Positions 268-62,790 of a stretch of 64,000 nt of DNA are shown here, in pieces. A program made the position numbers and the translations under genes. A model generated the notes under the pieces. The model was not told where the DNA came from, made no database searches, and was given only the letters and a program-made list of their open reading frames with translations. The DNA is from an uncultured Acidobacteriota bacterium (lineage in GTDB: Bacteria; Acidobacteriota; Thermoanaerobaculia; Gp7-AA8), in assembly GCA_963793695.1 (NCBI GenBank), contig CAWCBB010000016.1, forward strand, positions 132,550-196,549. The letters are read 5' to 3'. Each line of letters opens with the position of its first letter. The stretch's first letter is position 1.

Positions 268-1222
268 CCGGAGGCGTTGACCGTTCTCCGTTGACCGTTG
301 ACCGTTCTCCGTTCTCCGGTCTCCGCTGAAAATGGGGTGAGGCTGCGCGAGGGCTGGAGGCGCGAAGCCGTTTTCGCGGAGGCGTTCTCCGTTCTTCGTT
401 GTCCGTTCTCCGCGGCAAATGGGGTGAGGCTGCGCGAGGGCTGGAGGCGCGAAGCGCCGCGATATTGGTAGCACCCGGCGTCAGCCGGGTGAACGTGTCG
501 CCTCAGGCGGATCCGAGCGCGCAGCGGCGGACACTGCCGCCGCTGACGCGGCTCATCTTGGTGCAGCTCTCTCACACCGGCCCGCCGGAGGCGTTCTCCG
601 TTCTCCGTTCTCCGTTCGCGCAAATGGGGTGAGGCTGCGCGAGGGCTGGAGGCGCGAAGCGCCGCGATATTGGTAGCACCCGGCGTCAGCCGGGTGAACG
701 TGTCGCCTCAGGCGGATCCGAGCCGCGCAGCGGCGGCACAATCTGCCGCCGCTGACGCGGCTCATCTTGGTGCAGCTCTCTCACACCGGCCCGCCGGAGG
801 CGTTCTCCGTTCTCCGTTCTCCGTTCTCCGCGGCAAATGGGGTGAGGCTGCGCGAGGGCTGGAGGCGCGAAGCGCCGCGATATTGGTAGCACCCGGCGTC
901 AGCCGGGTGAACGTGTCGCCTCAGGCGGATCCGAGCCGCGCAGCGGCGGCACAATCTGCCGCCGCTGACGCGGCTCATCTCGGTGCAGCTCTCTCACACC
1001 GGCCCGCCGGAGGCGTTCTCCGTTCTCCGTTCTCCGTTCTCCGCGGCAAATAGGGTGAGGATGCGCGAGGGCTGGAGGCGCGAAGCGCCGCCATATTGGT
1101 AGCACCCGGCGTCAGCCGGGTGAACGTGTCGCCTCAGGCGGATCCGAGCCGCGCAGCGGCGGCACAATCTGCCGCCGCTGACGCGGCTCGTTGTTCTCGG
1201 TGCGGCTCTCTCACACCGGCCT
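268..1222. repeat. tandem array of a ~208-216 bp unit (1 truncated + 4 full copies)
   Basis: Unit starts (CCGGAGGCGTTCTCC...) are at 268, 377, 585, 794 and 1007. Units 3 and 4 are almost identical. Each unit has a short (GTTCTCC)n block, GCAAATGGGGTGAGGCTGCGCGAGGGCTGGAGGCGCGAAGC, and the strong stem GCAGCGGCGGCA-caatc-TGCCGCCGCTG. Track ORFs here (e.g. 670..1053) only read the repeat. Confidence 0.9.
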
Positions 1223-1278
1223 GACGGCCGGTGCTACCAATGTGGTGCCGCTTCGCGGCGCACGCCGGATCGTGCCGC

Positions 1279-1467
1279 GGAGAACGAAGACCGAAGAACG
1301 AAGAACAGAGAACGAAGAACGGAGAACGAAGACCGAAGAACGAAGAACAGAGAACGAAGAACGGAGAACGGAGAACGAAGAACGGAGAACGGAGAACGAA
1401 GAACGAAGAACGGAGAACGGAGAACGAAGAACGGAGAACGGAGAACGAAGAACGGAGACCGAAGAAC
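1279..1467. repeat. 27-unit heptamer array (GGAGAAC/GAAGAAC/AGAGAAC/GAAGACC), right arm of the 268-1467 element
   Basis: Counted by eye as 27 consecutive 7-nt units (189 bp) with higher-order 42-bp and 21-bp periodicity. It is the reverse complement of the (GTTCTCC)n blocks in the tandem units and abuts the xerD stop codon. Confidence 0.9.
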
Positions 1468-1471
1468 GCCC

Positions 1472-2413
1472 CTACGCCCTGGGATGGAACTGGTCGTAGA
1501 TCTTCTGCAGGCGGGCGCGGGTGACGTGCGTGTAGATCTGTGTGGTCGAGATGTCGGAGTGGCCGAGCATCATCTGGACGCTCCGGAGGTCGGCCCCGTT
1601 CTCGAGCAGATGCGTCGCGAAGGAGTGGCGGAGGACGTGGGGCGAGATGTGGGAGGTGACCCCGGCCGCGCGCGCGTATTTTTCGATCTTGAGCCAGATC
1701 GACTGCCTCGAGAGCGGCCGGCCGCGGATGCTCAGAAAGAGCGCCGGGTCGCCGTAGCGGTCGAGCTCCCCCCGCCCCTTCTCCATCCATTCGAGGATGG
1801 CGTCGCGCGCGGCGTCGCCGAAGGGGACGATCCGCTCCTTCGAGCCCTTCCCGATCGTCCGGAGGAAGCCCGCGTCGAGCACCAGATCGTCGATCCGGAT
1901 CCGAATCAGCTCGCTCACGCGCAGGCCCGTCGCGTAGAGGATCTCGAGCATCGCCTTGTCGCGGAGCCCCAGCGGCGTCGACACGTCGGGAGCCCGGAGC
2001 AGCGCCTCCACCTCGGAGGGGAGGATCGACTTGGGCAGCGACCCCCACAGCTTCGGATTGTCGATGTTCTCGGTCGGATCCGCTTTCAGGTGGCGCTCGG
2101 CCGTCAGGAACCGGTAGAGCCCACGGATCGCGGCGAGAGCGCGCGCGACCGAGCGCGCGGAGATGCCGGCTCCGCGCAGCGCCTGGAAGTAGCGCACGAG
2201 GTTGACCCGCTCGACCTCCTCGAGCGCGAGCTTCTGCTCGCCGAGCCAGTGGCCGAAATGGCGCAGGTCGGCGGCGTACGCCTTGATCGAATTGCCCGCG
2301 AGCCCCTTCTCGACCGCGAGGTAGTCGAGATACATCGGGAGCCACGTGACGAAGAACGGCCCGGCCTCCTTTTTCTCAGGGTCGATCGTTCGCGGGTGGC
2401 GGAGGCGGGGCAT
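1472..2413 (-). CDS. xerD: site-specific tyrosine recombinase XerD/XerC family
   Basis: ORF 1472..2479. Product carries an N-terminal core-binding domain and catalytic-domain motifs (ATGLRVSEL, HVLRHSFATHLL, LGHSDISTTQIYTHV). Start moved to ATG 2413 (MPRLRHP...) because upstream codons lie in the GAGTCGG repeat. Confidence 0.9.
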   Translation of the reverse strand: MPRLRHPRTIDPEKKEAGPFFVTWLPMYLDYLAVEKGLAGNSIKAYAADLRHFGHWLGEQKLALEEVERVNLVRYFQALRGAGISARSVARALAAIRGLYRFLTAERHLKADPTENIDNPKLWGSLPKSILPSEVEALLRAPDVSTPLGLRDKAMLEILYATGLRVSELIRIRIDDLVLDAGFLRTIGKGSKERIVPFGDAARDAILEWMEKGRGELDRYGDPALFLSIRGRPLSRQSIWLKIEKYARAAGVTSHISPHVLRHSFATHLLENGADLRSVQMMLGHSDISTTQIYTHVTRARLQKIYDQFHPRA

Positions 2414-2425
2414 GGAACGATTGTA

Positions 2426-2680
2426 GTCGGGAGTCGGGAGTCGGGAGTCGGGAGTCGGGAGGTGGGAGGTGGGAGTCATTCAACATTCAACATTCAACAT
2501 TCAACATTCCGGAGCCGCGGGGAACGTGAATGTTGAATGGTGAATGTTGAATGTTGAATGTTGAATGTAAAGTGAATGTTGAATGTTGAATGGATTGAAT
2601 GATTGAAGTGATGTTGAATGTTGATATGAAAACCCCGCCAGCCGGTCGCGGGGCCCCCTGACCCCTGACTTCCGACTGCC
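2426..2680. repeat. nested inverted-microsatellite hairpin (outer GTCGGGA arms, inner TCAACAT/ATGTTGA arms)
   Basis: Outer left arm (GTCGGGA)n is 2426-2476 and its imperfect complement CCCCTGACCCCTGACTTCCGACTGCC is 2654-2680. Inner left arm (CATTCAA)n is 2477-2510. The loop is CGGAGCCGCGGGGAAC. Inner right arm (GAATGTT)n is 2526-2626 (about 14 units against about 5). Confidence 0.85.
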
Positions 2681-3624
2681 TAGTGGTGGTACGCCTTTTC
2701 CCCCGCCTTCAGCCGGATCGGGAGCCTGTTCTGCCGCGGCGGCAGGGGGCAGGTCGCGAACTCGGTGAAGGCGCACGGCGGGTTGTAAGCCTTGTTGAAG
2801 TCGAGGATCGTCTTGCCGTCGGGTCCGGGCGGCTGGGCGTAGAGGTAGCGTCCCGCGCCGTACGTCTCGCCCCCGCTCGTCTCGTCCGCGAAGATCACGA
2901 AGAGCTCGTCCGATCCCTCTTCGAGGATCGGGTCGAGCCGGTACTCCTTCCCGTCGATCTCGAAGACGAGCGCCCCCGGAGAGGGGAGCGGTTCGACGAT
3001 GCCGACGATGTTGAGGATCGGGATCTGCTTGGGCGGGGTGTACGGCTCGAGACGCGCCTCGACGCGCCACTTCGGGTCCGTCGGGAAGTACTCGAGGCCG
3101 CGGAACGAGGTGAGCGCGGGATGCTCGCGGTCCCTCACGCGCACGCCGACGCGGTCGCCCCGCTCGATGACGAAGAACTGTACGGGTCCGACTTCGGCGA
3201 TCGTCGGCGCCCCGGACGTATCGGGCTTCATCTCGATCGTGCCCACGGGATTTCCCTCGACGGTCACGAACGCGCCGGGGGCGGTCGTCAGCGTCACGCT
3301 TCTGCCGCTCCGCGTGAGGGTTCCGGCCGTCTCGGGGGCCTTTCCTTCCGGCAGCCGGATCTGGCTCGCCGTCCCCGATCCGACGCTGCTCTCCCCCTCG
3401 TCGAGCCAGAAGAGCCCGGTGAGCGTGAGCCATCCCGTGTCGCGGAGCAGTCCCTTCGCGCGGCCAGCCTGCCACTCGCGGATCTCTTCCTTGTAAGAAG
3501 GAGCTCCCGGTCCTTTCCGGGCCTCGGCCTCGGCGGCGGTCGGTCCGGGACCCGCCTCGTATCGGCAGGAGGGGAGAAGGACGGCGAGAGCGAGCATCAC
3601 GATCAGGTTCGATTTCATCTGCAT
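2680..3624 (-). CDS. DUF1684-like lipoprotein
   Basis: ORF 2680..3702. Start placed at ATG 3624 (MQMKSNLIVMLALAVLLPSC, lipobox; GGAAGGA just upstream). The C-terminal FNKAYNPPCAFTEFATCPLPP region matches my recollection of DUF1684. The family call is from memory only. Confidence 0.65.
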   Translation of the reverse strand: MQMKSNLIVMLALAVLLPSCRYEAGPGPTAAEAEARKGPGAPSYKEEIREWQAGRAKGLLRDTGWLTLTGLFWLDEGESSVGSGTASQIRLPEGKAPETAGTLTRSGRSVTLTTAPGAFVTVEGNPVGTIEMKPDTSGAPTIAEVGPVQFFVIERGDRVGVRVRDREHPALTSFRGLEYFPTDPKWRVEARLEPYTPPKQIPILNIVGIVEPLPSPGALVFEIDGKEYRLDPILEEGSDELFVIFADETSGGETYGAGRYLYAQPPGPDGKTILDFNKAYNPPCAFTEFATCPLPPRQNRLPIRLKAGEKAYHH

Positions 3625-9861: not shown

Positions 9862-9930
9862 CATTCAACATTCGCCATTCAACATTCGGGTTCTGCCCCG
9901 CGAGCAATGTTGAATGTTGAATGTTGAATG
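9862..9930. repeat. inverted-microsatellite hairpin, TCAACAT flavour
   Basis: CATTCAACATTCGCCATTCAACATTC - gggttctgccccgcgagc - AATGTTGAATGTTGAATGTTGAATG. Confidence 0.85.
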
Positions 9931-9956
9931 AAGAAAACGGGGGCCGAAGCCCCCGT
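9931..9956 (-). terminator. intrinsic terminator downstream of carD
   Basis: The minus strand reads ACGGGGGC-uucg-GCCCCCGU followed by UUUUCUU: an 8-bp GC stem, a UUCG tetraloop and a U-tract, 23 nt after the carD stop. Confidence 0.7.
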
Positions 9957-9978
9957 CGAAACCGAATGACTCTGCGGG

Positions 9979-14131: not shown

Positions 14132-14159
14132 CGGCGCTATTGTATGGTCCCGGGGGAAA

Positions 14160-14275
14160 GACAAATGCAAAATGCAGAATGCAAAATGAAAAATACGAAA
14201 AGGAAACCGGCCCGGGATTCACCGGCAGCTTCCTTCTTGGACTTTACATTTTGCATTTTGCATTTTGCATTTGTC
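14160..14275. repeat. inverted-microsatellite hairpin, AT-rich ATGCAAA flavour
   Basis: GACAAATGCAAAATGCAGAATGCAAAATGAAAAATAC ... TTACATTTTGCATTTTGCATTTTGCATTTGTC. It fills the divergent deoA/queC intergenic region and has a close relative at 53904-53995. Confidence 0.9.
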
Positions 14276-14282
14276 TTTTGAT

Positions 14283-14965
14283 ATGCCCCACCCACCAATA
14301 CACGCTGTAGTCCTCCTGAGCGGCGGCCTCGACTCCGCGACCGTGCTCGCGCTTGCGCGGCGCGAGGGGCGCGAGGTGTCGGCGCTGTCGTTCGACTACG
14401 GGCAGCGCCACCGGGTCGAGCTCGAGGCGGCGGCGCGGGTCGCTTCCTCCCTCGGCGCCGCGAGACACGTATCGTGCCGGTCGACCTGCGCGCCTTCGGC
14501 GGGAGCGCTCTCACGGACGACATCGATGTCCCGAAAGACGCGCTGGGGCGCGACGCGGTTCCGGTCACGTACGTTCCTGCGCGGAATACCGTCTTTCTTT
14601 CTCTGGCGCTCGCCTATGCCGAAGCGCGCGGCGCGAAGGAGATCTGGCTCGGGGTGAACGCGGTCGACTTCAGCGGGTACCCCGACTGCCGGCCGGAGTT
14701 TCTCGAGGCGTTCCGGCGGGTGATCCTCACCGGAACGCGGAGCGGCGTGGACCGCGGAGAGCCGCGCGTAGTGGCGCCGCTCCTCGAGATGTCGAAAGGG
14801 GAGATCATCCGTACCGGCACCGCCCTGGGGGTCGATTTTTCTCTGACGGTCTCCTGTTACGACCCCGACGGAAAGGGGTGGGCCTGCGGCCACTGCGACT
14901 CCTGCCTTCTGCGGAAGGAGGGATTCGCCGCCGCGGGCGTCGCCGACCCGACTCGCTACCGATGA
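14283..14965 (+). CDS. queC: 7-cyano-7-deazaguanine synthase, one frame break near 14470
   Basis: [20 protein letters not shown] (PP-loop SGGxDS) in ORF 14265..14657, then ORF 14474..14965 ([13 protein letters not shown]-terminal Zn motif CGHCDSC). Confidence 0.9.
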
Positions 14966-15597
14966 TTCGCATCACCGAGATCTTCCATTCGATTCAGGGA
15001 GAGTCCACGCACGCGGGGCGCCCCTGCATCTTCATCCGCCTCACGGGCTGCAATCTCCGCTGCAGCTGGTGCGATTCCGCGTACACGTTCACCGGCGGCG
15101 AGCCGATGTCGATCGAGTCGATTCTCGAGACGATCGCGACGTGGGATTGCCGTCTCGTCGAGGTGACGGGCGGAGAGCCGCTCGCGCAGAAGGAGTCGCT
15201 CGAGTTGATCCGCCGGCTCGCCGACGCCGGCTACGAGGTCCTGATCGAGACGTCCGGATCGATCGACATCGAGCCGGTCGACCCGAGGGCGAAGATCATC
15301 CTCGACGTGAAGTGCCCCGGCTCGGGGGAGGAGCGGAAGAACTTCTGGCCCAACCTCGCGAAACTCCGCGCGCACGACGAGGTCAAATTCGTGCTCGCCG
15401 ACCGTGCCGATTACGACTACGCCCTCGGCGTGATCCGGGAGCACGGCCTCGAGGGGCGGGCGCTGCTTTTCTCCCCCGTGTGGGGATCGCTCGATCTGAA
15501 GGACCTCGCAGCCTGGATGCTCGAGGACAGGATCGAGGCGCGGCTCCAGATCCAGCTGCACAAGCTGATCTGGGGAGCGGACGCGCGCGGAGTCTAG
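14962..15597 (+). CDS. queE: 7-carboxy-7-deazaguanine synthase (radical SAM)
   Basis: ATG 14962 overlaps the queC stop (ATGA). [39 protein letters not shown] carries the QueE CxxxCxxC signature. The gene is intact. The stop TAG 15595-15597 lies in the first GTCTAGGG unit. Confidence 0.9.
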
Positions 15598-16112
15598 GGG
15601 TCTGGGAGTCTAGGGGTCTAGGAGTCTAGGGGTCTGGGAGTCTAGGGGTCTAGGAGTCTAGGGGTCTGGGAGTCGGTCTTGGAGTCGAGTCTGAGGGTCA
15701 GGGTTGGAGTCGTGAAATGACTCCGAACACGACACCCGGGCCGACGCCAGACTCCGACGTTTAGACCCAATGGCCTTAACTTAAGCGATGGTTTCGACGA
15801 CGATGTCATCCCGAGCGTAGCGAGGGATCTGGGCGGGGGCTGCGAAAGAACGCGGCGCCGGTGCAGGGCAGGAGGATCGGCATTCGCTTCGTGATCGCAG
15901 GCGAATCTCGACCCTGCCGCCGTGCTTCGGTGCCGCGTCACGCGTAACCCACCCGCCCAGATCCCTCGCTACACTCGGGATGACAGCTTCGCGGGCAACT
16001 CGCTTAAGTTAAGGCCATTGCGTTTAGACCGACGCTTAGACTCTCAGACGCTTAGACCGACTCCAAGACTCCAAGACTCCAAGACTCCTAGACCCTTAGA
16101 CCCGTTACGCGG
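15592..16112. repeat. inverted-microsatellite hairpin, 8-mer GTCTAGGG/CCTAGAC flavour, carrying a nested MITE
   Basis: Left arm (GTCTRGGR)n runs about 15592-15700. Right arm (TTAGACC/CAAGACTC)n runs 16021-16112. The 253-bp MITE 15768-16020 sits between the arms. Confidence 0.85.
15768..16020. mobile_element. non-autonomous MITE, 253 bp, copy 1
   Basis: 18-bp TIRs CAATGGCCTTAACTTAAG / CTTAAGTTAAGGCCATTG. Flanking 10-bp direct repeat CGTTTAGACC (15758-15767 and 16021-16030). It contains 33-bp inner inverted repeats GTCATCCCGAGCGTAGCGAGGGATCTGGGCGGG (15805-15837 and 15952-15984) and has no ORF. Confidence 0.8.
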
Positions 16113-17536: not shown

Positions 17537-17542
17537 CAAGAC

Positions 17543-20206: not shown

Positions 20207-20220
20207 GGCGGCCTAAAGGC

Positions 20221-20350
20221 GTTCTCCGTTCTCCGTTCTTCGTTCTCCGCGGCGAGGGCTCCGGCCGGACCGAACGGCTCGCGGGACCCACATCAGAATC
20301 GCCGCCCGGACGGGGTGCCGCGAAGAACGGAGAACGAAGAACGGAGAACG
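20221..20350. repeat. inverted-microsatellite hairpin, GTTCTCC flavour
   Basis: GTTCTCCGTTCTCCGTTCTTCGTTCTCC-GCGGC...core...GCCGCG-AAGAACGGAGAACGAAGAACGGAGAACG. It is preceded by GTAGGGCGGCC, which holds the M50 protease stop. Confidence 0.85.
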
Positions 20351-20430: not shown

Positions 20431-23159
<2,729 letters not shown>

Positions 23160-23162
<3 letters not shown>

Positions 23163-23288
23163 GGGGAGGGGTTAGGGACTAGGGGCTGGGGGCTAGTTCT
23201 TCCTTCATCGCTCGCTGCTCTCGGAATCCGGCATCAGCCGGATGACGACCCGTGACGGCCAGCCCCTGACCTCCAGCCCCCAACCCCT
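23160..23288. repeat. inverted-microsatellite hairpin, GGGGCTA flavour
   Basis: TAGGGGGAGGGGTTAGGGACTAGGGGCTGGGGGCTAG ... CCAGCCCCTGACCTCCAGCCCCCAACCCC. The secA stop TAG 23160-23162 is its first triplet. Confidence 0.8.
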
Positions 23289-23998: not shown

Positions 23999-24619
23999 AT
24001 GAGCGACGCGTCCGCGCGCCGGGGTCCGAGACGGGTCTGGACGGTTCCGAACATCCTGAGCCTCCTCCGGCTGGGGGTGATCCCGCTGTTCGTCTGGCTC
24101 TCGATCGAAGGGCATTTCGCCGCGGCGTTCTTTCTGTTCGTCGGCGCGGCGCTCACGGACGCGCTGGACGGCTGGGTCGCCCGCCGCTTCGACCAGAGAT
24201 CGCGCCTCGGCGCGTACCTCGATCCCGCAGCCGACAAGACGATGATGGTGACGACGTACATCGTCTACACGATCCCCTCGATCGCCCAGTATCGCCTCCC
24301 CGCCTGGCTGACCTTCACCGTCTTCATCCGCGATGTGACGATCGTCGTTTTCGCCTATCTCCTCTACACCCGCATCCGCGTGAAGCGGTTCCCTCCCTCG
24401 GTCCCGGGAAAGATCTCCACGATCGTGCAGGTCGTGGCGCTCGCCGCGACCATCGGCGCGAACATGTTCCTCGCTCCGATCGCCGCGCCACTCCTCTGGA
24501 CCGCGCATCGCGCCGCCTTGCTGATGACGCTCTACTCCGGGTTCGACTACATCCGGAAGTGGGACCGAGAGCTGGACGCAAGCGTCCCGGCCGACGCGCC
24601 TAGACGCCTAGACGCCTAG
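23999..24619 (+). CDS. CDP-alcohol phosphatidyltransferase family protein (PgsA-like)
   Basis: Intact 206-aa ORF with motif DALDGWVARR...G...DPAADK (DGx2ARx8Gx3Dx3D) and about 5 TM segments. The last 7 codons and the stop read into the TAGACGCC array. Confidence 0.8.
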   Translation: MSDASARRGPRRVWTVPNILSLLRLGVIPLFVWLSIEGHFAAAFFLFVGAALTDALDGWVARRFDQRSRLGAYLDPAADKTMMVTTYIVYTIPSIAQYRLPAWLTFTVFIRDVTIVVFAYLLYTRIRVKRFPPSVPGKISTIVQVVALAATIGANMFLAPIAAPLLWTAHRAALLMTLYSGFDYIRKWDRELDASVPADAPRRLDA

Positions 24620-24663
24620 ACTCCTAGACGCCCAGACGCCTAGACGCCTAGACCCCTAGACGC
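24598..24663. repeat. solo 8-mer array (GACGCCTA)n, about 8 units
   Basis: GACGCCTAGACGCCTAGACTCCTAGACGCCCAGACGCCTAGACGCCTAGACCCCTAGACGC. I found no inverted partner nearby. Confidence 0.85.
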
Positions 24664-24669
24664 TACAAT
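24641..24669 (+). promoter_or_regulatory. candidate promoter for tRNA-Lys
   Basis: TAGACG (24641-24646, 4/6 to TTGACA, supplied by a repeat unit) - 17 nt - TACAAT (24664-24669). It lies about 55 nt upstream of the tRNA. Confidence 0.3.
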
Positions 24670-32006: not shown

Positions 32007-32053
32007 TCGTTGATCGTTGCGGGGTTTCCGATCAACGACCAACGATGAACGAC
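32001..32053. repeat. inverted-microsatellite hairpin, GTTGATC flavour
   Basis: CGTTGATCGTTGATCGTTG-cggggtttcc-GATCAACGACCAACGATGAACGACC. Confidence 0.85.
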
Positions 32054-32085
32054 CACGAAAGCGAGTGACCGCTCGGTGAGCGGTT

Positions 32086-46777: not shown

Positions 46778-47269
46778 GATTGGAGATTGCAGATTGCGGA
46801 TTGCAGATTGGGCGAGCGCAGCAGCCGGATTCTATGTCATCCCTCGCTGTGCTTCTAATGAACCGGCCGCCCGCGGGTGGAGTGGAATGAAGGGATGTTA
46901 GTCGCCCCTCGGGGCTCGACCCTGTTTCTCTGGGGGGTTCACCCCCGTATTCTCTGCGCCGCTTCGCGGCGTCGCTCCCGCGAAGCGGCGGGAGACATAG
47001 CGGGGGCGAGCGAAGCGAGCCCCGTAGGCGGCGGATACGAATCCCGAGCCCCGAAGGGGCGACAGACCCAAATCTCATCGCCCCTTCGGGGCTCGACCCT
47101 GTTTCTCCGCCACGGTTCCCGGGGGTTCGCTTCGCTCACCCCCGGCTATTCTCTGGCGCCGCTTCGCGGCGTCGCATTCCTTAGAAGGGTGATCGAGGGA
47201 TTCGAGGGTGAGGCGACGCGCACTGCACGGTCAGCGCACCGCACCTGAGCAATCTGCAATCTGCAATGC
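46778..47269. repeat. composite repeat region bounded by GATTGCA/TGCAATC heptamer arms
   Basis: Left arm GGATTGGAGATTGCAGATTGCGGATTGCAGATTGGG and right arm GAGCAATCTGCAATCTGCAATGC. Inside are a GTCATCCCTCGC-type inverted pair (46846 / about 47190), two direct copies of TCGCCCCTCGGGGCTCGACCCTGTTTCTC...GCCGCTTCGCGGCGTCGC (46902 and 47078), and several hairpins. Confidence 0.8.
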
Positions 47270-51302: not shown

Positions 51303-51312
51303 CGAAGAAGCC

Positions 51313-51564
<252 letters not shown>

Positions 51565-51570
51565 GATCCC

Positions 51571-53865
51571 CTAATGCGGTATCAGCTCCGCGACCTCGCC
51601 CGTTCCCTCGATGATCTGGTCGAGGGTATCGCCGGCGAGGAGCTTGGGGAACGCCTCGCGCCAGATCCTGCCGAGCTCCCGGGTCGTGGAGCGGAGCAGG
51701 ATCGTTCCTTTGCGCGCGACGAGGAAGGCGGCATCGACCGTGGTTCCCACTCGGAACGCGGAGACTCCGGCGAGCTCGGCCGCGGCGAGGATGGAGCTGA
51801 CCTGTTCTTCGGGGGCCGCCACGACCGCCCGCCCCTGGCTCTCGCCGAAGAGGAGCGCGACCGGGTCGATCTCGTCCGCGTGCGCGCCGAGGTCGATCTC
51901 GACGCCGACCCCGTCCATGGCCGATTCGGCGAGCGCGACGGCGAGCCCGCCGTTCGAGAGGTCGTGCGCCATCGAGATCCGCTCGTCCTTCCAGAGCTCG
52001 AGCAGCAGCTCGATGAGGGCGCGCTCGCGCTTCGCAGGTCGACGCGCGGCGGGAGCGGCGAGCGCGTCGGGATGGAACATCTGCTGATACTCGGAGCCGC
52101 CGAGCTCGTCGCGCGTCTCGCCGAGGAGGACGATCGCCTCGACCGGACGCTCGAAGCGGCAGTCCGAGGACGCGCTCCGCGTCCTCGACGATCCCGACCA
52201 TGCCGATCGTCGGCGTCGGGTTCACGGGACGCCCCTCGGTCTCGTTGTAGAACGAGACGTTGCCCGAAACGACCGGCGTGTCGAGCGCGCGGCACGCGTC
52301 GCTGATCCCGCGGATCGCCTCGGCGAACTGCCACATGATCTCGGGCCGCTCGGGGGAGCCGAAGTTGAGGCAATCGGTGATCGCCGCGGGGCGCCGCGCC
52401 GGTGCACGCGACGTTGCGCGCCGCCTCGGCGACCGCCTGCTTGCCTCCCTCGTACGGATCGAGCGCAGCAGTAGACGGGGTTCACGTCGGACGTGATCGC
52501 GAGCGCGCGGCCGCGTGCCCTTGACGCGGACGACCGCGGCGTCGCTCCGTTCCGGCTTCGCGATCGTGTTCGTCCGGACGCGTCGTGTCGTACTGCTCCC
52601 AGATCCAGTGCTTTCGAGCAGAGATTCGGCGAGGCGAGGAGGCGGAAGAGGCGGCCGGTGAGATCGCCGTCGCGCTCGGCGGGCGCGCTCGAGGCGCTCG
52701 CGCGATGAGCCGGCGTGACGCCGGCTCGGCGATCGGCCGCTCGTATACCGGCGCCTCGGTCGAGATCGGGTCGACGGGGATCGCGGCGGCGAGCTCGCCG
52801 TGCCAGAAGAGCCGCACGAGGCCGTCGTCGGTCACTTCGCCGATCACCGCGGCGTCGAGATCCCACTTTCGAAAGATGTCGAGGACCTCCTGCTCGCGCC
52901 CCTTCTTCGCGACGATCAGCATCCGCTCCTGCGATTCCGAGAGCATGATCTCGTAGGGCGTCATGCCGCTCTCGCGCATCGGGACCCGGTCGAGATCGAG
53001 GCGGATGCCCGGTCCCGCCGCGGCCGGCCATCTCGAACGAGGAGGAGGTGAGCCCCGCCGCGCCCATGTCCTGGATGCCGACGATCGCGTCGGTCTCCAT
53101 CAGCTCGAGGCACGCCTCGAGGAGCAGCTTCTCGGTGAACGGGTCGCCGACCTGCACGGTCGGGCGCTTCTGTTCCGACTCCTCGTCGAACTCGGCGGAC
53201 GCCATCGTCGCGCCGTGGATGCCGTCGCGCCCCGTCTTCGAGCCGACGTAGATCACCGGATTGCCGACGCCGGTCGCTTCTCCCTTGAAGATCATCCCCT
53301 CGCGCGCGATCCCGAGAGCGAAGACGTTGACGAGGATGTTGCCGTCGTACGACGCATGGAACGAGGTCTCGCCGCCGATCGTCGGGACGCCGATGCAGTT
53401 GCCGTAGCCGGAGATCCCGCGGACGACGCCGTCGACGAGGTACTTCATGCGCGGCGCGTCGAGCGATCCGAACCGGAGCGAGTCGAGAGACGCGATCGGG
53501 CGCGCGCCCATGGTGAAGATGTCGCGGAGGATCCCGCCGACGCCGGTCGCCGCCCCCTGGTAGGGCTCGATGAACGACGGGTGGTTGTGCGACTCCATCT
53601 TGAATGCGGCGAGCCAGCCGTCGCCGATGTAGATCACGCCGGCGTTCTCGCCCGGCCCCTGCACGACGCGCGGCCCGGAGGTGGGGAACTTCCGCAGGTG
53701 AACGCGGCTCGATTTGTACGAGCAGTGCTCGGACCACATGACCGAGAAGATGCCGAGCTCGAGGTAGTTCGGCTCGCGCCCGAGGATCTGCCGGATCCGG
53801 TCGAACTCGTCGGGCGAAAGGCCGTGCGAGGCGACGAGGGCGGGGGTGATCTGAGGGTCCTGCAT
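51571..53865 (-). CDS. purL: phosphoribosylformylglycinamidine synthase subunit PurL, multiple frame breaks
   Basis: The N-terminal ~285 aa are intact in ORF 52222..53865 ([22 protein letters not shown]). Further pieces lie in ORFs 52482..52979, 51317..52336 and 51571..52080 ([11 protein letters not shown]). Confidence 0.9.
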
Positions 53866-53903: not shown

Positions 53904-53995
53904 CAAATGCAGAATGCAAAATGCAAAATGAAAAATACAAAAAGAGAACCCCGGTTTGCCCTTTTTTGACTTTACATTCTGCATTCTGCATTTCT
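53904..53995. repeat. inverted-microsatellite hairpin, ATGCAAA flavour (sister of 14160-14275)
   Basis: CAAATGCAGAATGCAAAATGCAAAATGAAAAATAC ... TTACATTCTGCATTCTGCATTTC. It shares the asymmetric core ends ATGAAAAATACRAAAAG and GACTTTACATT with the 14160 copy. Confidence 0.9.
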
Positions 53996-54920: not shown

Positions 54921-56768
54921 GTGTCCGATCAGCCGTCCGCCGCCGTCCTAGAGCGGCCCGAAGTCCCGCCCCGCGAGCCGAAGGTCAACGATCTGACGAT
55001 CCACGTCGCGACCGTCAACGGATCGGGATCGCAGTCCTCGAACAGCGTGCTGATGCGCTCCATCTTTCAGATGGGGATCCCCGTCAGCGGGAAGAACATG
55101 TTTCCCTCGAATATCGCGGGGCTCCCGACGTGGTTCACGATCCGGGCGAACCGCGACGGCTGGATCGCGCGGAAGCGCGAGGTCGACATCCTGGTCGCCA
55201 TGAACCCGGCGACGGCTCGCGACGACGTCGAGGCGCTCGAGGCCGGGATCGATCTGCGTCTACGACGCGCCGCTCAAGTGCGAGACGTTCCGCGCGGACC
55301 TCGGCTTCTACCCCGTTCCGTTCGCGAAGCTCGCCGCGGAAGTCACCGACGACTCGCGCCTCAAGAAGCTCCTCGCGAACATGATCTACGTCGGGATCGT
55401 CGCGGACCTGATCGGGATCGAGCGGGAAGAGATCGTCGCCGCGGTCGGGAAGCAGTTCAAGGGAAAGCAGAAAGCGATCGACCTCAACGTCAGGGCGGTC
55501 GACAAGGGGCTCGAGTACGCGAAGGCGAACTTCGCAGCGCCAGTCGCGCTGGCGCGTCGAGCGGATGGACGCCACGCGCGGCAAGATCATCATCGACGGG
55601 AACGCCGCCGCCGCGATCGGCGCCATGTTCGGCGGCGTCACCGTCGTGACGTGGTATCCGATCACCCCGTCGTCTTCGCTCTGCGAGAGCCTGATCGACT
55701 ACATGAAGCGGTTCCGCGGTCCGCGACGGCAAGGCGACGTTCGCCATCGTGCAGGCCGAGGACGAGCTCGCCGCCGTCGGGATGGTCCTCGGCGCCGGAT
55801 GGGCGGGAGCGCGCTCCATGACGGCGACCTCCGGCCCCGGCATCTCGCTGATGGCGGAGTTCGCGGGGCTCGGCTACTTCGCCGAGATCCCGGGCGTGAT
55901 CTGGGACATCCAGCGGGTGGGCCCCTCGACCGGGCTTCCCACGCGCACCGCCCAGGGAGACGTCCTCTCGGTCGCTCTGCTCTCGCACGGCGACACGCAG
56001 CACATCGCGCTGATCCCGGGCTCGGTCGAGGAGTGCTTCGAGTTCGCGATCGACGCTCTCGATCTCGCCGAGGCTGTTCCAGACGCCCATCTTCGTCCTC
56101 TCGGATCTCGACCTCGGCATGAACAACTGGATGTCCGATCCGTTCCGCTATCCGGACCGACCGATCCGCCGCGGCAAGGTGCTGACGAAGGAGCGAGCTC
56201 GAGGAGCTCGGCGGGAAGTGGGGGCGCTACGACGACGTCGACGGCGACGGGATTCCGTGGCGCACGCTTCCGGGGACCGAACATCCGATGGCGTCGTACT
56301 TCACGCGCGGCTCGGGGCACGACGCGCAGGCGCGCTACTCCGAGCGCCCTGAAGACTACAAGGCGACGGTCGACCGCCTCCGGAAGAAGTACGAGACCGC
56401 GCGCGACCAGGTGCCGCCGCCGGTCGTCGACAGGCGCGACGGGGCGAGGATCGCGTTCATCGCCTACGGCACGACGGATTTCTCGGTCGAGGAGTCGCGC
56501 CACCAGCTCCGGAGCGAGCGGGGGATCGAGACGAGCTACATGCGGCTGCGCGCGCTGCCGCTGCACGCGACGAGCTCGCGCGTTCGTCGCGGCGCACGAG
56601 CGCGTCTACGTCGTCGAGCAGAATCGCGACGGCCAGATGGCCGACCTGATCCGGCTCGAAGTCGGCGAGGAACAGGGGCGGATCCGGAAGATCCTCCACT
56701 ACGACGGTCTGCCCTGTCACGCGCGGTACGTGACGGATGCGGTGATCGAGATGGAAGGTGATCGTTGA
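54921..56768 (+). CDS. korA: 2-oxoacid:ferredoxin oxidoreductase alpha subunit (fused gamma-alpha type), multiple frame breaks
   Basis: GTG start after GGGAGGAG. N-terminal gamma-like VATVNGSGSQSSN, then GNAAAAIGAMFGG...TWYPITPSS and SGPGISLM. Fragments lie in ORFs 54921.., 55381.., 55565.., 55749.. and 56288... The stop TGA 56766-56768 lies inside a GTTGATC unit. Confidence 0.8.
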
Positions 56769-56937
56769 TCGTTGATCGTTGGCAGGATGTCATCCCGAGC
56801 GTAGCGAGGGATCTGGCCGGGTGGGCGGTGCGAAACTGCGATTCGTGCACCGCACCCCCACCCGGATTCCTCGCTACGCTCGGAATGACACGTCCGACGG
56901 GCGCCTTCGATCAACGGTCAACGGTCAACGATCAACG
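56759..56937. repeat. inverted-microsatellite hairpin (GTTGATC flavour) carrying a nested GTCATCC palindrome, between korA and korB
   Basis: Arms TGATCGTTGATCGTTGATCGTTGG and CGATCAACGGTCAACGGTCAACGATCAACG. The nested 101-bp element at 56789-56889 reads GTCATCCCGAGCGTAGCGAGGGATCTGG...CCGGATTCCTCGCTACGCTCGGAATGAC. Confidence 0.85.
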
Positions 56938-58024: not shown

Positions 58025-59163
58025 ATGCCGAAAGAGTATCGAGGCGACGACGAGTCCGAGGCGCCCGACGCCAAGGGGGCGGTCGAGTCCGACATCGAGA
58101 GGATCGAGGTCATCCAGGGAGACGAGGTCCTCGGCTACCCGGGCGCCGGACGCGAGGAGCATTCCGGAGAAGACGCCACGTCGAATGAGTCGGGTCTCGC
58201 GGACAACGAGAACGTCTCCGAAAAACAACGCACGCGGATGATCGATGTCGCCGACGTCCTCGGCCGCGTGCATTCGTTCGGCCGCCCGCCCGAGCGGGTC
58301 GTCTCTCTCGTCCCGTCGCTGACGGAAACGCTCTTCGATCTCGGCGCGGGAAACTCCGTCGCCGCCGTCACGGAGTTCTGCATCTTCCCGGAAGGGAAGC
58401 TCTCCGCTTCTTCCGCGGATCGGCGGGACGAAAACCCCCCGCGTCGACGCGATCCGCGCCCTCGCTCCCGACCTCGTCTACGTGAACGTCGAAGAGAACC
58501 TCGCGCGGGACGCGGAGCGCGATCGCGAGGTTCGCGCCCGTCTTCCCGACGGAGCCGAAAACCGTAGCCGGCGTTCTCCATCTCCTGACGGATCTCGGCA
58601 GGATCCACCGCCGCGACGACGACGCCGCGAACTGGAAGGAGCGGATCTCGCGCGAGATCGCGCGCGCCGGAGAGTCGAGGCCGTTCTCCTTCGCCTGCGC
58701 GATCTGGAAGGGCCCCTGGATGTGGTGCGGGGGCGACACCTACGTGTCGGACCTCATCACCACCGCGGGAGGAACCAACGTGCTGGGAGGGGAGGCGCGC
58801 TATCCGAAGGCGTCGCTCGAGGACGTCGTCGCCCGCGCGCCCGACGTGATCTTCCTCCCGGACGAGCCGTACGCGTTCTCGGAGAAGGATGCCGCCGATG
58901 CGAGGTCGAGGTTCGACGGCCGCGTGATCGGTCCGTTCCCGGGCCACCTCTTCACGTGGCACGGGACGCGGACGGCGAAAGGGTTGGCGTTCCTGCGGGA
59001 GGTGTTCGAGCACGTGATCCGGCACGTCGCTTTTATGCCCGTGCGAGGCATCTGCCCGCTCGGCCCCGGAACGCGACGTCCGCGTTTGCGAGAGACCGTT
59101 CGCGCCGGGGAGAGGGGTATGAGATTGCGCGGATTCGTATACCCCTCTCCCCGGCGAGGATGA
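58025..59163 (+). CDS. BtuF/TroA-like (cobalamin/metal-binding fold) protein with acidic N-terminal extension, several frame breaks, 3' end uncertain
   Basis: An AGGAGG SD lies 8 nt before ATG 58025. About 70 acidic residues come first, then RVVSLVPSLTETLFDLG...AVTEFC, PDLVYVN, and WMWCGGDTYVSDLI...PDVIFLPDEPY (ORFs 58025.., 58482.., 58720..). There is no signal peptide. The tail after LREVFE may be read-through. Confidence 0.55.
59105..59154. repeat. perfect 16-bp GC-rich hairpin
   Basis: CCGGGGAGAGGGGTAT - 18 nt loop - ATACCCCTCTCCCCGG, followed by a GAGGATGATCCTGAGG / GCTCATCCCGGGGAGAGGGG segment. Confidence 0.8.
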
Positions 59164-59275
59164 TCCTGAGGAGAGATGATGCTCATCCCGGGGAGAGGGG
59201 ACGGGGTGAGGGCCGGGATACCTCTCTGCCGAATGGAGCCGATTTGCCGATTCGTGCTTCTTCGGGGATCATCCA

Positions 59276-59317
59276 GACGACGAACGACGATCAACGATCG
59301 AACGATCAACGATCAAC
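59276..59317. repeat. solo heptamer array (GATCAAC/GAACGAC)n
   Basis: GACGACGAACGACGATCAACGATCGAACGATCAACGATCAAC, immediately upstream of the oxidase ATG. I found no inverted partner. Confidence 0.8.
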
Positions 59318-59324
59318 TACACGA

Positions 59325-60727
59325 ATGAACTACGGCAAAGTCACTCCCGAGATCATCGAAGAGCTGAGGCGCGCGGTCGGCGAGGACGCGGTCGTCACCG
59401 ACGCGGACGAGCTGCGGCCGTTCGCCTCCGATTACACCGAGGACCTCGTCTTCCTGCCGGAGGTCGCGGTCCTGCCGCGCACCACCGAGCAGGTCCAGGC
59501 GATGGTCCGCATCGCGCACCGCCACTCGATCCCGCTCACTCCGCGCGCCGGCGGCACCGGACTGTCCGGCGGGCGCTCTGCCGATCCTCGGCGGGATCCT
59601 CTTCTCCTGCCACCGGATGAACCGGATCCTCGAGATCGACCGCGGAGAACCTCGTCGGCGTCGTCGAGCCGGGGGTCATCACGCAGGTTTCCAGGAGGAA
59701 GTCGAGAAGGTCGGCCTCTTCTATCCGCCGGACCCGGCCTCGCGCGGCTCGTGCACGCTCGGCGGGAACGTCGCCGAGAACGCCGGCGGCCCGCGCGCCG
59801 TCAAGTACGGCGTCACGAAGGACTACGTCCTGGGAATCGAGGCGGTGCTTCCCGACGGGACGCTCATCAACGCGGCGGGAAGCTGTACAAGGACGTCACG
59901 GGCTACAACCTGCACGCAGCTTCTCGTCGGCTCGGAGGGGACGCTCGCGATCCTCACGAAGCTCTACATGAAGCTGATCCCCTGGCCGCCGCATCGGAAA
60001 GTGCTCCTCGCGCCGTTCGACTCGCTCGAGGCGGCGGCGCGCGCCGTGGTGAACGTCTTCACGCAAGGGCGTGCAGCCGAGCGCGTGCGAGCTGATGGAG
60101 AAAGACGCGGTCGACTGCGCGGTGCGGCAGCTCGGCAAGAACTGGCCGCACGCGGACGCCGCGGCGCACGTGCTCCTCGAGACGGACGGCCACTCGGCCG
60201 AGCGCGTCGACGAGGAGGCGATGCTGATCGGCGAGGCGTGCGTCGAGGCGGGCGCGGAGGACGTGCTGATCGCGGAGGACGGCCCGAGGATGCAGGAGCT
60301 CTGGGCGTTGCGGCGCTCGATCGGCGAGGCGGTCAAGTCGATCAACATCTACAAGGAAGAGGACACGGTCGTCCCGCGCAACCGCATCCCGGAGCTCATC
60401 GCGCGGCGTCAAGGAGATCGCCGCGGCGCTACGGCCTCATGACGATCTGCTACGGCCACGCCGGCGACGGCAACATCCACTGCAACATCATCAAGACCGT
60501 CGACGACGAGACGTGGGGGAGCGTCCTCCCCGTCGCCGATCCGCGAGATCTTCGAGCACACCGCGAAGCTCGGCGGGCAGGTCTCGGGCGAGCACGGGAT
60601 CGGGTACGTCCAGCGCGAGTATCTGCCGATCACGCAGGGCGCCGCGGAGATCGCGCTCATGAGGCAGATCAAGGACGTCTTCGATCCGAAGGGGATCCTC
60701 AACCCGATGAAGATCTTTCCGGACTAG
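59325..60727 (+). CDS. FAD-linked oxidase (GlcD / D-lactate dehydrogenase family), multiple frame breaks
   Basis: FAD-binding PCMH region (VAVLPRTTEQVQAMVRIAHRHSIPLTPRAGGTGLSGG), GGNVAENAGG, GSEGTLAI, and C-terminal GEHGIGYVQREYL...DPKGILNPMKIFPD ending at TAG 60725-60727. Fragments lie in ORFs 59617.., 60071.. and others. Confidence 0.8.
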
Positions 60728-60730
60728 TGG

Positions 60731-60868
60731 AGCGTCTAGGATGTCTAAGCGTCTCAGGAGTCTAGGAGTCGGTCGGGAGTCGAGGCGTCCAGAGTCTTCT
60801 CGACCGACTCTTGCCCGGAGACGCCCTGACCAGACTCCTACACTCCGAGACCCCTAGACTCCCAGACT
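60731..60868. repeat. inverted-microsatellite hairpin, 8-mer GTCTAGG/CCTAGAC flavour, between convergent genes
   Basis: AGCGTCTAGGATGTCTAAGCGTCTCAGGAGTCTAGGAGTCGGTCGGGAGTCGAGGCGTC ... GACGCCCTGACCAGACTCCTACACTCCGAGACCCCTAGACTCCCAGACTC. Confidence 0.8.
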
Positions 60869-61717
60869 CACATTTCCTTCCGGTACTTCGGATCGAGCGC
60901 GTCGATCAGGCCGTCGCCGAGGAAGTTGAGGCCCATGACGGCGAGCATGATGGCGATGCCCGGGATAGATCGCGAGATGGTTCGCGAGGCCGAGGTACTG
61001 GCGCCCGGTCGGTGAGCATCGCGCCCCATGACGGCGTCGGCGGCTGCACGCCGAGGCCGAGGAACGAGAGCGCCGCTTCGGCGAGGATCGCGCCGGCGAG
61101 GCCGAGCGTCGCCATGACGATGACCGGGCTGAGGACGTTCGGCAGCAGATGCCGGAAGATGATCCGCGGGCGAGCGCGCGCCGAGCGCCTCGCGCGGCGA
61201 TGACGAACTCCATCTGCCGCACCTTCAGGATCTGACCCCGCACGAGGCGCGCGTAGCCGACCCAGCCGATGACCGAGAGCGCGAGGATCACGTTGTTGAG
61301 GCTCGGCCCGAGGACCGCGACGAGCGCGATCGCGAGGAGGATGCCGGGAAACGCGAGGAGCATGTCGGAGAGCCGCATGATGAGCGTGTCGACCGTCGCC
61401 GCCGAAGTAGCCGGCGACCGCGCCGAGGAAGACGCCGACGGTCGAGGCGAGGAGGACGACGCTGAAGCCGACGCGCAGCGAGACGCGCGCGCCGTAGACG
61501 ACGCGCGAGAGGACGTCGCGCCCGAGATCGTCGAGCCCGAGCAGGATGCTCGCGCGACGGCCCCTCGAGCCGGCGCGACGTCTCCTGCCAGTCGGGTCGT
61601 GCGGCGCGATGAGACGGCGCGGCGAGCGCGACGACGACGAGGGCGATCGTGATCAGCGCGCCGGACGGTCAGCGCGAAGTTCCCGAGGAACGTCTTCCGG
61701 AACGTTGTCTTTGCCAT
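60868..61717 (-). CDS. ABC transporter permease, DppC/OppC family, multiple frame breaks
   Basis: MAKTTFRKTFLGNF at the N-terminus. Core pieces IMRLSDMLLAFPGILLAIALVAVLG and ATLGLAGAILAEAALSFLGLG (ORF 60906..61115). The tail ...LNFLGDGLIDALDPKYRKEM ends at TGA (TCA 60868-60870). Confidence 0.8.
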
Positions 61718-61726
61718 GCCCTCTGC

Positions 61727-62652
61727 CTAGTCGTACGAGATCCGCGGATCGACGAACGCGTAGAGGATGTCGGTGAACAGGTTGATCAGGATGTACGTGA
61801 GCGCGATGACGAGGATCGACGCCTGCACCTGCGGGTAGTCGCGCGCGTTGATCGACTGGATCAGCAGGCGGCCGAGGCCCGGCCAGGAGAAGATCTGCTC
61901 GGTGATGATCGCGCCGGTCAGCAGGGAGCCGAACTGCAGGCCGACGATCGTGATCACGGGGATGAGCGCGTTGCGGAGGCCGTGGACGAAGATCGCCTTC
62001 TGCCTCCCGACGCCTTTCGCGAGCGCCGTCGTCACGTAGAGCTGGTCCAGCTCGTCGGCGAGGCTCACCCGGATCATGCGCGTGAGGATCGCCGCGAGCG
62101 CGAGGCCCATCGTGAGCGAGGGGAGGACCATCGAGCGGAGGCCGGCGTCGCGCCCCGACACGGGAAACCATCCGAGGTGGATGGCGAACGCGATGATCAG
62201 CAGCGGCCCGAACCAGAAGCTCGGCATCGAGACGCCGGCGAGCGCGAAGAAGCGCGCGACGTTGTCGATCCAGGAGTTCCGGTAGATGGCCGAGACGATC
62301 CCGAGCGGGAACGCGACGAGGAGCGCGACGAGCATGCCGCCGAACGCGAGCTGGAGCGTCGCGGGATAGCGCTGCGAAGATCTGCTGCGGCGACGGGCTG
62401 CTGCGTGCGGAACGAGACGCCCAGATCGCCGCGCGCGATCCCGGCGAGGTAGTCGACGTACTGCTCCCAGAGCGGCTTGTCGAGGCCGAGCTGATGGCGC
62501 ACCCGCTCGACGTCGGCGGCCCGCGCGTTCTCCCCGGCGATCTGCACCGCCGGATCGCCCGGGATCATGTGGATCAGCGCGAAGATCAGCGTCATGATCC
62601 CGAAGGTGATCGGGATGACCTGGAGGAGCCGGCGGATGATGTAGGCCGTCAC
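61727..62652 (-). CDS. ABC transporter permease, DppB/OppB family, one frame break near 62385
   Basis: MTAYIIRRLLQVIPITFGIMTLIFALIHMIPGDP (ORF 62197..62652), then ORF 61727..62671 (TTALAKGVGRQKAIFVHGLRNALIPVIT, C-terminal DPRISYD). Confidence 0.85.
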
Positions 62653-62687
62653 GAGTCGGGCAGGACTGCAAATTGTCGGCCGGGGGC

Positions 62688-62790
62688 CGTTCTCCGGTCT
62701 CCGGTCTCCGTTGGAATGACGCCTATTTCGGGCGCGGGCGCGGGCGCGGGCGACGGAGACCGGGAGACCGGAGACCGGAGAACGGAGAAC
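62688..62790. repeat. inverted-microsatellite hairpin, GTTCTCC/GGTCTCC flavour
   Basis: CGTTCTCCGGTCTCCGGTCTCCGTT ... (GGGCGC)3 core ... ACGGAGACCGGGAGACCGGAGACCGGAGAACGGAGAACG. Confidence 0.85.

Follow-up and report, generated by a model that had tools for sequence, protein, structure and literature searches.

What are the arrays of short tandem units that stand in facing pairs between the genes of an uncultured member of the Acidobacteriota? The stretch that raises this question, here called the window, comprises 64,000 nucleotides (64 kb) of contig CAWCBB010000016.1 (assembly GCA_963793695.1, positions 132,550 to 196,549), with a G+C content of 67% and, according to Pfam scans, exclusively ordinary housekeeping genes. 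Crp, EngB and other proteins assign this soil genome to the uncultured Thermoanaerobaculia. We call a facing pair a foldback, its two arrays the arms and its middle the core or loop, and refer to foldbacks built from the same 7- to 9-nt unit as one flavour. The foldbacks are a real and dense instance of a barely characterised repeat class, and we put at about even the chance that they are REPIN-like foldback repeat families whose microsatellite stems have been remodelled by slippage and which probably form RNA hairpins at 3' ends and between cistrons.

Arrays, hairpins and gene ends

Tandem Repeats Finder (TRF) and an independent detector agree on 23 arrays of period 7 and three of period 8, at the positions where the original prediction had placed them, against a mean of 0.02 for either period in 50 third-order Markov simulations of the window. 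The arrays make up 18 loci, lettered A to R along the window: 15 are simple inverted pairs, the one at 2425-2680 is a double pair with one foldback nested in the other, and two, at 24597-24663 and 59276-59317, are solo arrays. At 16 of the 18, same-unit arrays lie close together on opposite strands, and an inverted-repeat finder gives 75-97% complementarity between arms as reverse complements, as had been predicted (for example 97% between 2477-2509 and 2528-2560, 89% between 51311-51366 and 51504-51559, and 88% between 14157-14205 and 14230-14278). The eight flavours originally listed are all present, although the right arm assigned to GTCGGGA (2655-2680) is weak and its unit differs at two of seven positions. 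The claim that almost every intergenic gap is occupied was too strong: arrays are found in 18 of the 46 stretches without coding signal, or about half of the real gaps longer than 100 bp. None of the period-7 or period-8 arrays falls within a confirmed coding region, all of them lying in stretches without coding signal or at their edges. Array density differs by lineage; the window holds approximately one locus per 3.5 kb (4.8 arrays per 10 kb), and most ClpP-anchored loci from other genomes hold 0-1.5 arrays per 10 kb.

RNA folding gives a very stable predicted hairpin for every locus on either strand (-26 to -357 kcal/mol), in line with the earlier description of the loci as long imperfect hairpins with microsatellite stems. 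Distances to stop and start codons, taken from the ends of open reading frames (ORFs), the locus sequences and Pfam identities, place most of these hairpins at gene ends. Between co-directional genes the nearest arm usually abuts or overlaps the stop codon of the upstream gene (median ~3 nt), lying within ~5 nt of it at loci A, B, E, G, H, J, K, M, O and R, and the far arm is ~40 nt from the next start codon. Locus Q lies between convergent genes with both stops inside its arms, loci I and M are internal to the tig-clpP and purL-purF units, and locus D separates divergent starts. The positions noted beforehand (following stops, between divergent starts and within an operon) are confirmed, and a setting between convergent genes is added to them.

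The foldbacks are not canonical U-tract terminators, as had also been proposed. The foldbacks themselves lack T-runs, and among the loci the terminator pattern occurs only at 9936-9957 (beside locus C) and 51400-51429 (in the core of locus M). Counts of canonical terminators (14, 17 and 14) do not clearly exceed those expected from shuffled sequence (11.0, 10.6 and 8.1). The one that had been noted beside the element at 9862-9930 is genuine and occupies 9936-9957 on the minus strand.

Descent, turnover and competing origins

Constancy of polarity indicates that foldbacks of one flavour are copies of one another. In all 14 paired loci of the five multi-copy flavours the left arm reads the same way within each flavour, a result with P = 2^-9 if polarity were random. 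Inverting a locus leaves foldback polarity unchanged, and polarity therefore records descent from whole foldbacks. It is also kept between genomes, for AAATGCA/GAATGCA in the window, L203 and L126 (L numbers denote sequences from other genomes), for the GTCTAG 8/9-mer in the window, L199, L200 and L218, and for GCTGAAT in L201, L206 and L207. Junction motifs point the same way in part. The inner junction CGCGGCA...TGCCGCG, which had been ascribed to the GTTCTCC loci generally, is present in three of five (at 1044, 20250 and 26317) and absent at 51313 and 62688; both AAATGCA loci (D and N) share the inner-stem motifs AAATGAAAAATAC...GACTTTACATT (z=3.5). In L203, whose genome has ~80% protein identity to that of the window, the orthologous gap between trpD and queC carries the same AAATGCA flavour as locus D. 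On polarity and junction motifs we infer that each flavour would represent a lineage of copies derived from a whole foldback.

Comparison with syntenic relatives reveals that foldbacks occupy slots, each extending from just past a stop codon to a conserved downstream leader. Sequences L218 and L219 share 20 kb of perfect synteny with window positions 21-42 kb (83-91% nucleotide identity; EngB 86% identical), and L216 and L217 are 91-92% identical to the window at the nucleotide level. At five slots (lon-engB, engB-rho, tig-clpP, pgsA-tRNA and secA-crp) the flanks align and the insert differs; it can be a foldback (of the same or of a different flavour), a REP doublet with GTAG tags or simply a GC hairpin. 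At lon-engB, the 8-mer foldback of the window corresponds to the same 8-mer right arm in L217, to a GC hairpin with a CGACCCT array in L216, and to a GTAG-tagged REP doublet, GTAGGGACCG...CGGTCCCTAC, in L218. GAGTTGACAAGTRTGGGAGAATGGGCC (31306-31345), directly downstream of this slot, is conserved between the window and both L216 and L218; probably representing the promoter or leader of engB, it forms a sharp boundary to the variable slot. At tig-clpP, the GTTCTCC foldback of the window is replaced in L218 by a REP doublet of the family found at its lon-engB slot, in L121, L120, L146 and L206 by four other heptamer foldbacks, in L126 by a miniature transposable element with inverted repeats (MITE), and in L119 and L201 by plain hairpins. 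The window has no member of this REP family of L218. At secA-crp, the window has a GGGGCTA foldback, L218 a remnant of its right arm, and L199 and L200 a 9-mer array. At pgsA-tRNA, the window retains a right arm alone (solo array H), the survivor of an 8-mer foldback that is complete in L218. Every slot variant that was folded gave a strong hairpin. We read the slots as requiring, or at the least accepting, a strong hairpin, whatever its origin.

Slot turnover is recent and fast, with conserved flanks, even between strains that are ~99% identical. Contigs L218 and L219 come from different samples and are 99.97% identical, yet a 101-bp tandem duplication of the GTAG-REP doublet at the end of tig distinguishes them (L218 4984-5083 versus L219 4883-5083). 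L216 and L217, 99.1% identical, differ at the edge of their lon-engB insert. At engB-rho, L216 and L217 have the GTTGATC flavour of the window around an unrelated core, and L218 has a 9-mer foldback. Between the window and L216 the core of this locus is wholly different and the arms keep their flavour, with two compensatory unit changes (GTCGATC/GATCGAC and GTTGATT/AATCAAC). Loops thus appear, from these alignments, to evolve faster than arms in foldbacks of the same flavour.

Arm statistics were drawn from 54 strict pairs across the window and the other sequences compared. Period 7 accounts for 52 of the 54; the median arm has ~4.3 units (~30 bp) and the median core 44 nt. As had been predicted, the arms of a locus share a flavour and differ in copy number (4 versus 27, 5 versus 14 and 2.3 versus 6.4 units), and left and right copy numbers are weakly correlated across pairs (rho=0.22). 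Higher-order periods of 14, 16 and 21 nt occur within arms, and variant units spread inside one arm only, AAGAACG dominating at 1281-1468 where left arms have GAGAACG. Unequal arms, higher-order periods and variants restricted to one arm are what slippage and unequal exchange within an arm produce. Larger tandem duplications are also present, of a 213-bp unit (four copies at 377-1221) and of ~235 bp in L203. Cores can be loops of 9-17 nt, and they can contain other repeats: a MITE, a REP-like hairpin or a canonical terminator.

These observations suggest a sequence of events in which a foldback copy would first arrive in an intergenic slot, by a route that may involve a single-strand transposase of the RAYT/TIRYT type or recombination between arrays. 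Three changes that the comparisons above show then follow: arms lengthen, shrink and homogenise independently through replication slippage and unequal exchange, the loop turns over rapidly through indels and secondary insertion of MITEs and REPs, and loss of an arm in some copies leaves solo arrays. Transcribed from either strand, the element would yield a very stable hairpin in the space between a stop codon, which it directly follows, and the next gene's leader or promoter. Judging from position and folding, this hairpin most likely would serve as a terminator or attenuator that needs no U-tract, as a barrier to 3'-exonucleases or as an RNase III site between cistrons.

Several results weigh against this reading. 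Cores of the same flavour do not resemble one another measurably more than cores of different flavours do (p=0.30), which means that common descent rests on polarity, junction motifs and one orthologous pair. Inspection of the sequence on either side of every locus reveals no consistent direct repeat that could represent a target-site duplication; enrichment of GTAG/CTAC tags beyond the arms, which would hint at mobilisation by a RAYT, is slight (7 of 108 ends versus 1 of 108 in the control orientation); and Pfam scans detect no transposase or RAYT gene in the 64-kb window. Folding of both strands at 17 loci, where G·U pairs create an asymmetry, favours the sense strand of the flanking genes at four and the antisense strand at five, with no consistent preference that would indicate selection on the RNA rather than on the DNA. 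A role at 3' ends cannot apply to locus D because it lies between divergent starts. Finally, the difference between L216 and L217 at lon-engB rests on only 14 nt at a contig end.

Among other explanations, the one that survives best is that each locus arose in place, from an ordinary terminator or stem-loop whose stem base was expanded by polymerase slippage, with template switching across the hairpin (quasi-palindrome correction) supplying the symmetry, and without copying between loci. The unequal, weakly correlated arms and higher-order periods would follow naturally, as would the different flavours at orthologous gaps in different lineages, the canonical terminator wrapped by locus M and the two compensatory unit changes at engB-rho. 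What local expansion does not anticipate is the recurrence of one heptamer at five loci and of four other units at two to three loci each within 64 kb, far beyond chance because a heptamer falls into approximately a thousand rotation and strand classes. The constant polarity within flavours, the junction motifs in common and the reappearance of flavours at non-orthologous sites in other genomes are likewise against it, and we regard an independent local origin as unlikely, if deserving of real weight.

It is improbable, in our estimation, that the arrays are primarily binding sites for flavour-specific regulators or nucleoid proteins, or for single-strand binders with ~7-nt sites such as cold-shock proteins, with the hairpin incidental or a switch. 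Conservation of the AAATGCA unit at trpD-queC between the window and L203, from genomes of ~80% protein identity, and the AT-rich flavours in promoter-side positions (locus D), would fit such a role, as would the -35-like TAGACG that array H has in its last unit, with a conserved TACAAT following 17 nt downstream. There are also candidate partners in the literature, since CspB engages one heptamer per protein in the account cited by PMC4679880 and protein partners have been proposed for Nostoc heptamers (bioRxiv 10.1101/2022.06.06.494920). However, at least eight flavours in 64 kb would require many dedicated factors, and the slots of close relatives accept unrelated flavours or REP doublets, which argues that structure matters and sequence does not.

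G-quadruplex or i-motif elements, as proposed for the Xanthomonas GGGAATC and Nostoc GGGGAYT repeats, are a very poor prospect. Three flavours are G-rich with runs of at least three G (GGGGCTA, AGTCGGG and GTCTAGGG), but GTTCTCC, CATTCAA, AAATGCA, GTTGATC and GATTGCA have no G-runs and the same architecture and positions, which refutes the G-quadruplex as a general explanation. An artefact of noisy long-read assembly, to which the frameshifted essential genes of the window might point, can be dismissed as next to impossible, given that orthologous sites in independent short-read contigs from relatives have the same architecture (L216 and L217 at engB-rho; L120, L121 and L146 at tig-clpP; also L218), that metagenome-assembled genomes (MAGs) of many phyla show such architecture too and that unique flanking genes anchor every locus.

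Loci along the window

The two largest loci flank a xerC/D-like recombinase gene (1472-2413, minus strand). Locus A begins with a degenerate outer left array of CGTTGAC/CGTTCTC (275-325; TRF periods 7 and 14), followed by the 213-bp macro-repeat in 4.0 copies (377-1221; 96% matches by TRF, 92-99% between units by blastn). Each macro-repeat unit consists of four copies of CGTTCTC, the junction CGCGGCA and half a core with a GTAG-tagged REP-like hairpin. An inner inverted repeat of 53 nt (1070-1122 with 1214-1266) precedes the right arm, identified by TRF and as an inverted repeat, which has 26.9 copies of AGAACGR and a 21-nt higher-order period (1281-1468) and ends 3 nt from the recombinase stop. 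In locus B, an outer left arm of AGTCGGG (7.6 copies by TRF, 2425-2477) precedes a nested inner foldback (2477-2624, 97% complementary) composed of 4.7 copies of CATTCAA, a 17-nt core and 14.4 copies of TGAATGT; the weak outer right arm, of CCCCTGA type (2655-2680), adjoins the stop of a DUF1684 gene (2680-3624, minus strand). The recombinase as mobilising enzyme is unsupported, because its two sides carry different flavours and it has an ordinary two-domain tyrosine-recombinase architecture.

Locus C is a CATTCAA foldback (9862-9930; left arm 9862-9888, right arm 9906-9930), and the terminator beside it, which belongs to carD as identified by Pfam, has nine pairs, seven of them GC, followed by TTCTTCATTC. 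Locus D (14157-14278), an AAATGCA foldback with 88% complementary arms, separates the starts of the trpD-like and queC/E genes. Locus E is a foldback of the 8-mer GTCTAGGG (15589-16103; left arm 15589-15693, right arm 16024-16103) whose first unit contains the stop codon TAG of the upstream gene. Its core holds a MITE at 15768-16020, with inverted ends of the form TGTCATCCCGAGCGTAGCGAGGGATCTGGGCGGG and 91% identity to a copy at 33685-33936. This MITE family has 34-40-nt inverted ends (TGTCATCCCGAGCGTAGCGAGGGATCTGGGCGGG) and a further window copy at 56786-56890; two of the three window copies lie in foldback cores (loci E and O), and the family is also present in L126 and in L218 (clpP-clpX gap). 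The copy at 33685-33936 splits a REP-like hairpin and is flanked on either side by GGGCGCCAGCC, resembling a target duplication.

Locus F is a GTTCTCC foldback (20220-20350) between an M50 peptidase gene and secA, with the junction CCGCGGCG...TGCCGCG, and locus G a GGGGCTA foldback (23160-23288) between secA and crp. Locus H, the solo 8-mer array, has 8.4 copies of CGCCTAGA (24597-24663) between pgsA and tRNA-Lys. A promoter-like site lies upstream of this tRNA at 24641-24669, its -35-like TAGACG in the last unit of the array and its TACAAT, 17 nt downstream, conserved in L218 and L201. With such a unit, an array would supply a -35-like hexamer every 8 nt. Locus I, another GTTCTCC foldback (26301-26418; 2.3 versus 6.4 units), lies between tig and clpP and has the junction CGTCGCGGCA...TGCCGCGG. 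The tig frame at 26290-26447 has no stop ahead of this foldback and reads through it to a TAG at 26445-26447, gaining ~50 residues; the window has CGTCGAG where L218 has TAG. The read-through is either a sequencing error or a genuine C-terminal extension encoded by the hairpin, and it illustrates that arrays are able to inflate ORF calls.

Locus J, a foldback of the 8-mer GTCTRGGG (31192-31305), begins 1 nt past the lon stop in the lon-engB slot, and locus K, a GTTGATC foldback (32001-32055), has the engB stop within its left arm in the engB-rho slot. The GATTGCA arms of locus L (46778-46810 and 47249-47267; locus 46778-47267) enclose a 438-bp core of nested repeats. Locus M, a GTTCTCC foldback with 7.6 versus 8.3 units (51311-51565), lies between purL and purF and contains in its core a canonical terminator-like hairpin on the minus strand (51400-51429), with 11 pairs, eight of them GC, followed by a T-run, GTGTTTTCAG. 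Locus N is the second AAATGCA foldback (53905-53992), with inner-stem motifs AAATGAAAAATAC... and ...GACTTTACATT in common with locus D. A more elaborate arrangement is seen in the clpP-clpX gap of L201 (4980-5310), a three-layer nest in which outer arms of GTGCTGA/ATTCAGC enclose repeated foldbacks of GAACGCA/GTTCTGC; the structure contains the motifs TTTGACTTT and GAATTTA more than once, and TTTGACTTT is also present in the window AAATGCA element at 53904-53995. Locus O is a GTTGATC foldback (56759-56937) with the short MITE copy (56786-56890) in its core, and locus P the solo array of GATCAAC type found by TRF (59276-59317). Locus Q is an 8-mer foldback (60731-60869) between the convergent genes for a FAD oxidase (plus strand) and an ABC permease (minus strand). 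Locus R, a GGTCTCC/GTTCTCC foldback (62687-62791), ends 3 nt from the stop of a PTPS gene (62795-63610, minus strand); most of its core is a perfect hexamer array of four CGGGCG units (62729-62752).

At the Rfam gathering score the window yields two tRNAs and two Acido-Lenti-1 matches alone, so that no foldback arm in it matches an Rfam family. Both Acido-Lenti-1 matches lie in cores, at 1076-1122 in locus A (minus strand) and at 47119-47171 in locus L (plus strand). The former is the GTAG-tagged REP-like hairpin GTAGCACCCGGCGTCAGCCGGGTG, which recurs in each 213-bp unit, with similar hairpins at 474-490, 679-695 and 892-908. The Acido-Lenti-1 family may represent not a small RNA gene but a dispersed repeat of REP type.

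Several essential genes in the window are broken: secA is spread over four ORFs by frameshifts (20431-23162), and purL (51571-53865), the FAD-linked oxidase gene (58482-60765) and queC/queE (14353-15597) are split or fused by frameshifts. We read these breaks as indel errors from noisy long-read assembly and not as pseudogenes. Because frameshifts make gene calling from GC-frame and codon usage unreliable, we dropped that approach and identified genes by Pfam scans and synteny. The arrays also have consequences for short-read assemblies. The short-read contigs L199, L200 and L217 of close relatives terminate within long 8/9-mer arrays; such repeats therefore break metagenome assemblies and are probably under-counted in MAGs.

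Relation to known repeats

The original prediction recognised no named family in this architecture, but a precedent exists. Two Xanthomonas genomes each contain 70-75 convergent inverted pairs of GGGAATC heptamer arrays, intergenic and near the upstream ORF (Rehm et al. 2015, PMC4692102). As in the window, each pair consists of one heptamer in two close, opposite-strand arrays capable of forming a stem-loop; ~90% of the arrays are intergenic and nearer the upstream ORF, and their length varies between relatives with the pair or solo type usually kept. Xanthomonas differs in having a single G-rich flavour at approximately one array per 27 kb, read as a G-quadruplex element, and units similar to the G-rich flavours of the window form G-quadruplexes in vitro (PMC4692102). 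The window instead has at least eight flavours, most unable to form G-quadruplexes (five of the eight have no G-runs and so depart from the GGGNATC pattern); its foldbacks have periods of 7, 8 and 9, include nested ones, reach approximately one locus per 3.5 kb and are interchangeable with REP doublets.

The excess of intergenic heptamers across prokaryotes was also known already, with no function assigned (SPADE survey, bioRxiv 10.1101/309039; Mrazek 2007, as cited in PMC4679880). Like the long simple sequence repeats (LSSRs) of those surveys, the short tandemly repeated repetitive (STRR) sequences of cyanobacteria and the TAACTGA repeats of Beggiatoaceae (PMC4679880), the arrays of the window are head to tail, strongly intergenic and phylogenetically scattered; they consist of tandem units within the 5-11 nt range, in at least three copies and far above chance, as heptanucleotide LSSRs do. 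Accounts of these known repeats chiefly concern direct arrays that stand alone, in many cases upstream of start codons, whereas in the window the inverted pair abutting stop codons dominates.

The GTTCTCC unit itself is widespread. Three tandem copies occur in at least 118 contig stretches of other genomes, and the hosts among the matches listed include Gemmatimonadales, Planctomycetota, Bacteroidales, Kiritimatiellaeota, Verrucomicrobiota, Treponema, Acidobacteriota and others. Among the same matches, ~26 of the 118 stretches contain inverted pairs, in both polarities, and several genomes have other flavours nearby. Phages are no obvious vector, with eight matches to the triple unit in 2.9 million viral contigs, and CRISPR arrays are excluded since the units are contiguous and have no spacers.

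Two classes of mobile element share part of the architecture. Foldback (FB) and Galileo transposons of Drosophila (PMC4079207, PMC3573991) also have inverted arms of short tandem repeats, of unequal length, around a variable or absent middle, but they are eukaryotic, of kilobase scale and equipped with known transposases and target-site duplications, and the analogy is structural only. MITEs resemble the foldbacks in being small, noncoding and intergenic with terminal inverted repeats; the foldbacks lack the target-site duplication and conserved internal sequence of MITEs, and the genuine MITE of the window (15768-16020 and 33685-33936) provides a contrast.

The closest kinship is with REP/REPIN/BIME elements (PMC3116915, PMC3733652), which had initially been set aside too quickly. 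Like them, the foldbacks are dispersed intergenic inverted doublets around a spacer, mostly downstream of genes, form long hairpins and comprise several families per genome that differ between strains. They are unlike them in that their arms are tandem 7-9-nt units and not a unique palindrome of 20-40 nt, and in that most lack the GTAG/CGTC tag (present at 7 of 108 arm ends). GTAG-tagged REP doublets nevertheless fill exactly the foldback slots in sister genomes, which argues for REPINs as close kin in function and position, although the foldbacks do not formally qualify as members, and RAYT-like TIRYT transposases have been reported in Acidobacteria (PMC3733652).

We found no description in the searchable literature of multi-flavour foldbacks or of their equivalence with REP doublets. 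Inverted heptamer pairs being known, what counts most here is the comparative link between heptamer arrays, hairpin slots and REPINs. It is doubtful, though worth stating, that the foldbacks form a distinct REPIN-like hairpin class spanning several phyla, in which slippage retunes stem length to give evolvable terminators or insulators, and that this class explains much of the heptamer excess. A more extreme version would have the arms deposited symmetrically on either side of a cleaved hairpin or of a cruciform, through templated synthesis of repeats in a reiterative manner, which, if true, would explain constant polarity and unrelated cores together. Foldbacks may in any case help to explain the abundance of 7-base tandem repeats between bacterial genes, and the link turns a vague statistical excess into a concrete hypothesis of structure-selected, fast-evolving hairpins with slippage-tunable stems. 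Beside the single G-rich flavour of Xanthomonas and the mainly solo arrays of other bacteria, the window is an unusually dense, multi-flavour case in which heptamer arrays are visibly the stems of hairpins in the slots at gene ends that REP doublets or plain hairpins occupy in its relatives.

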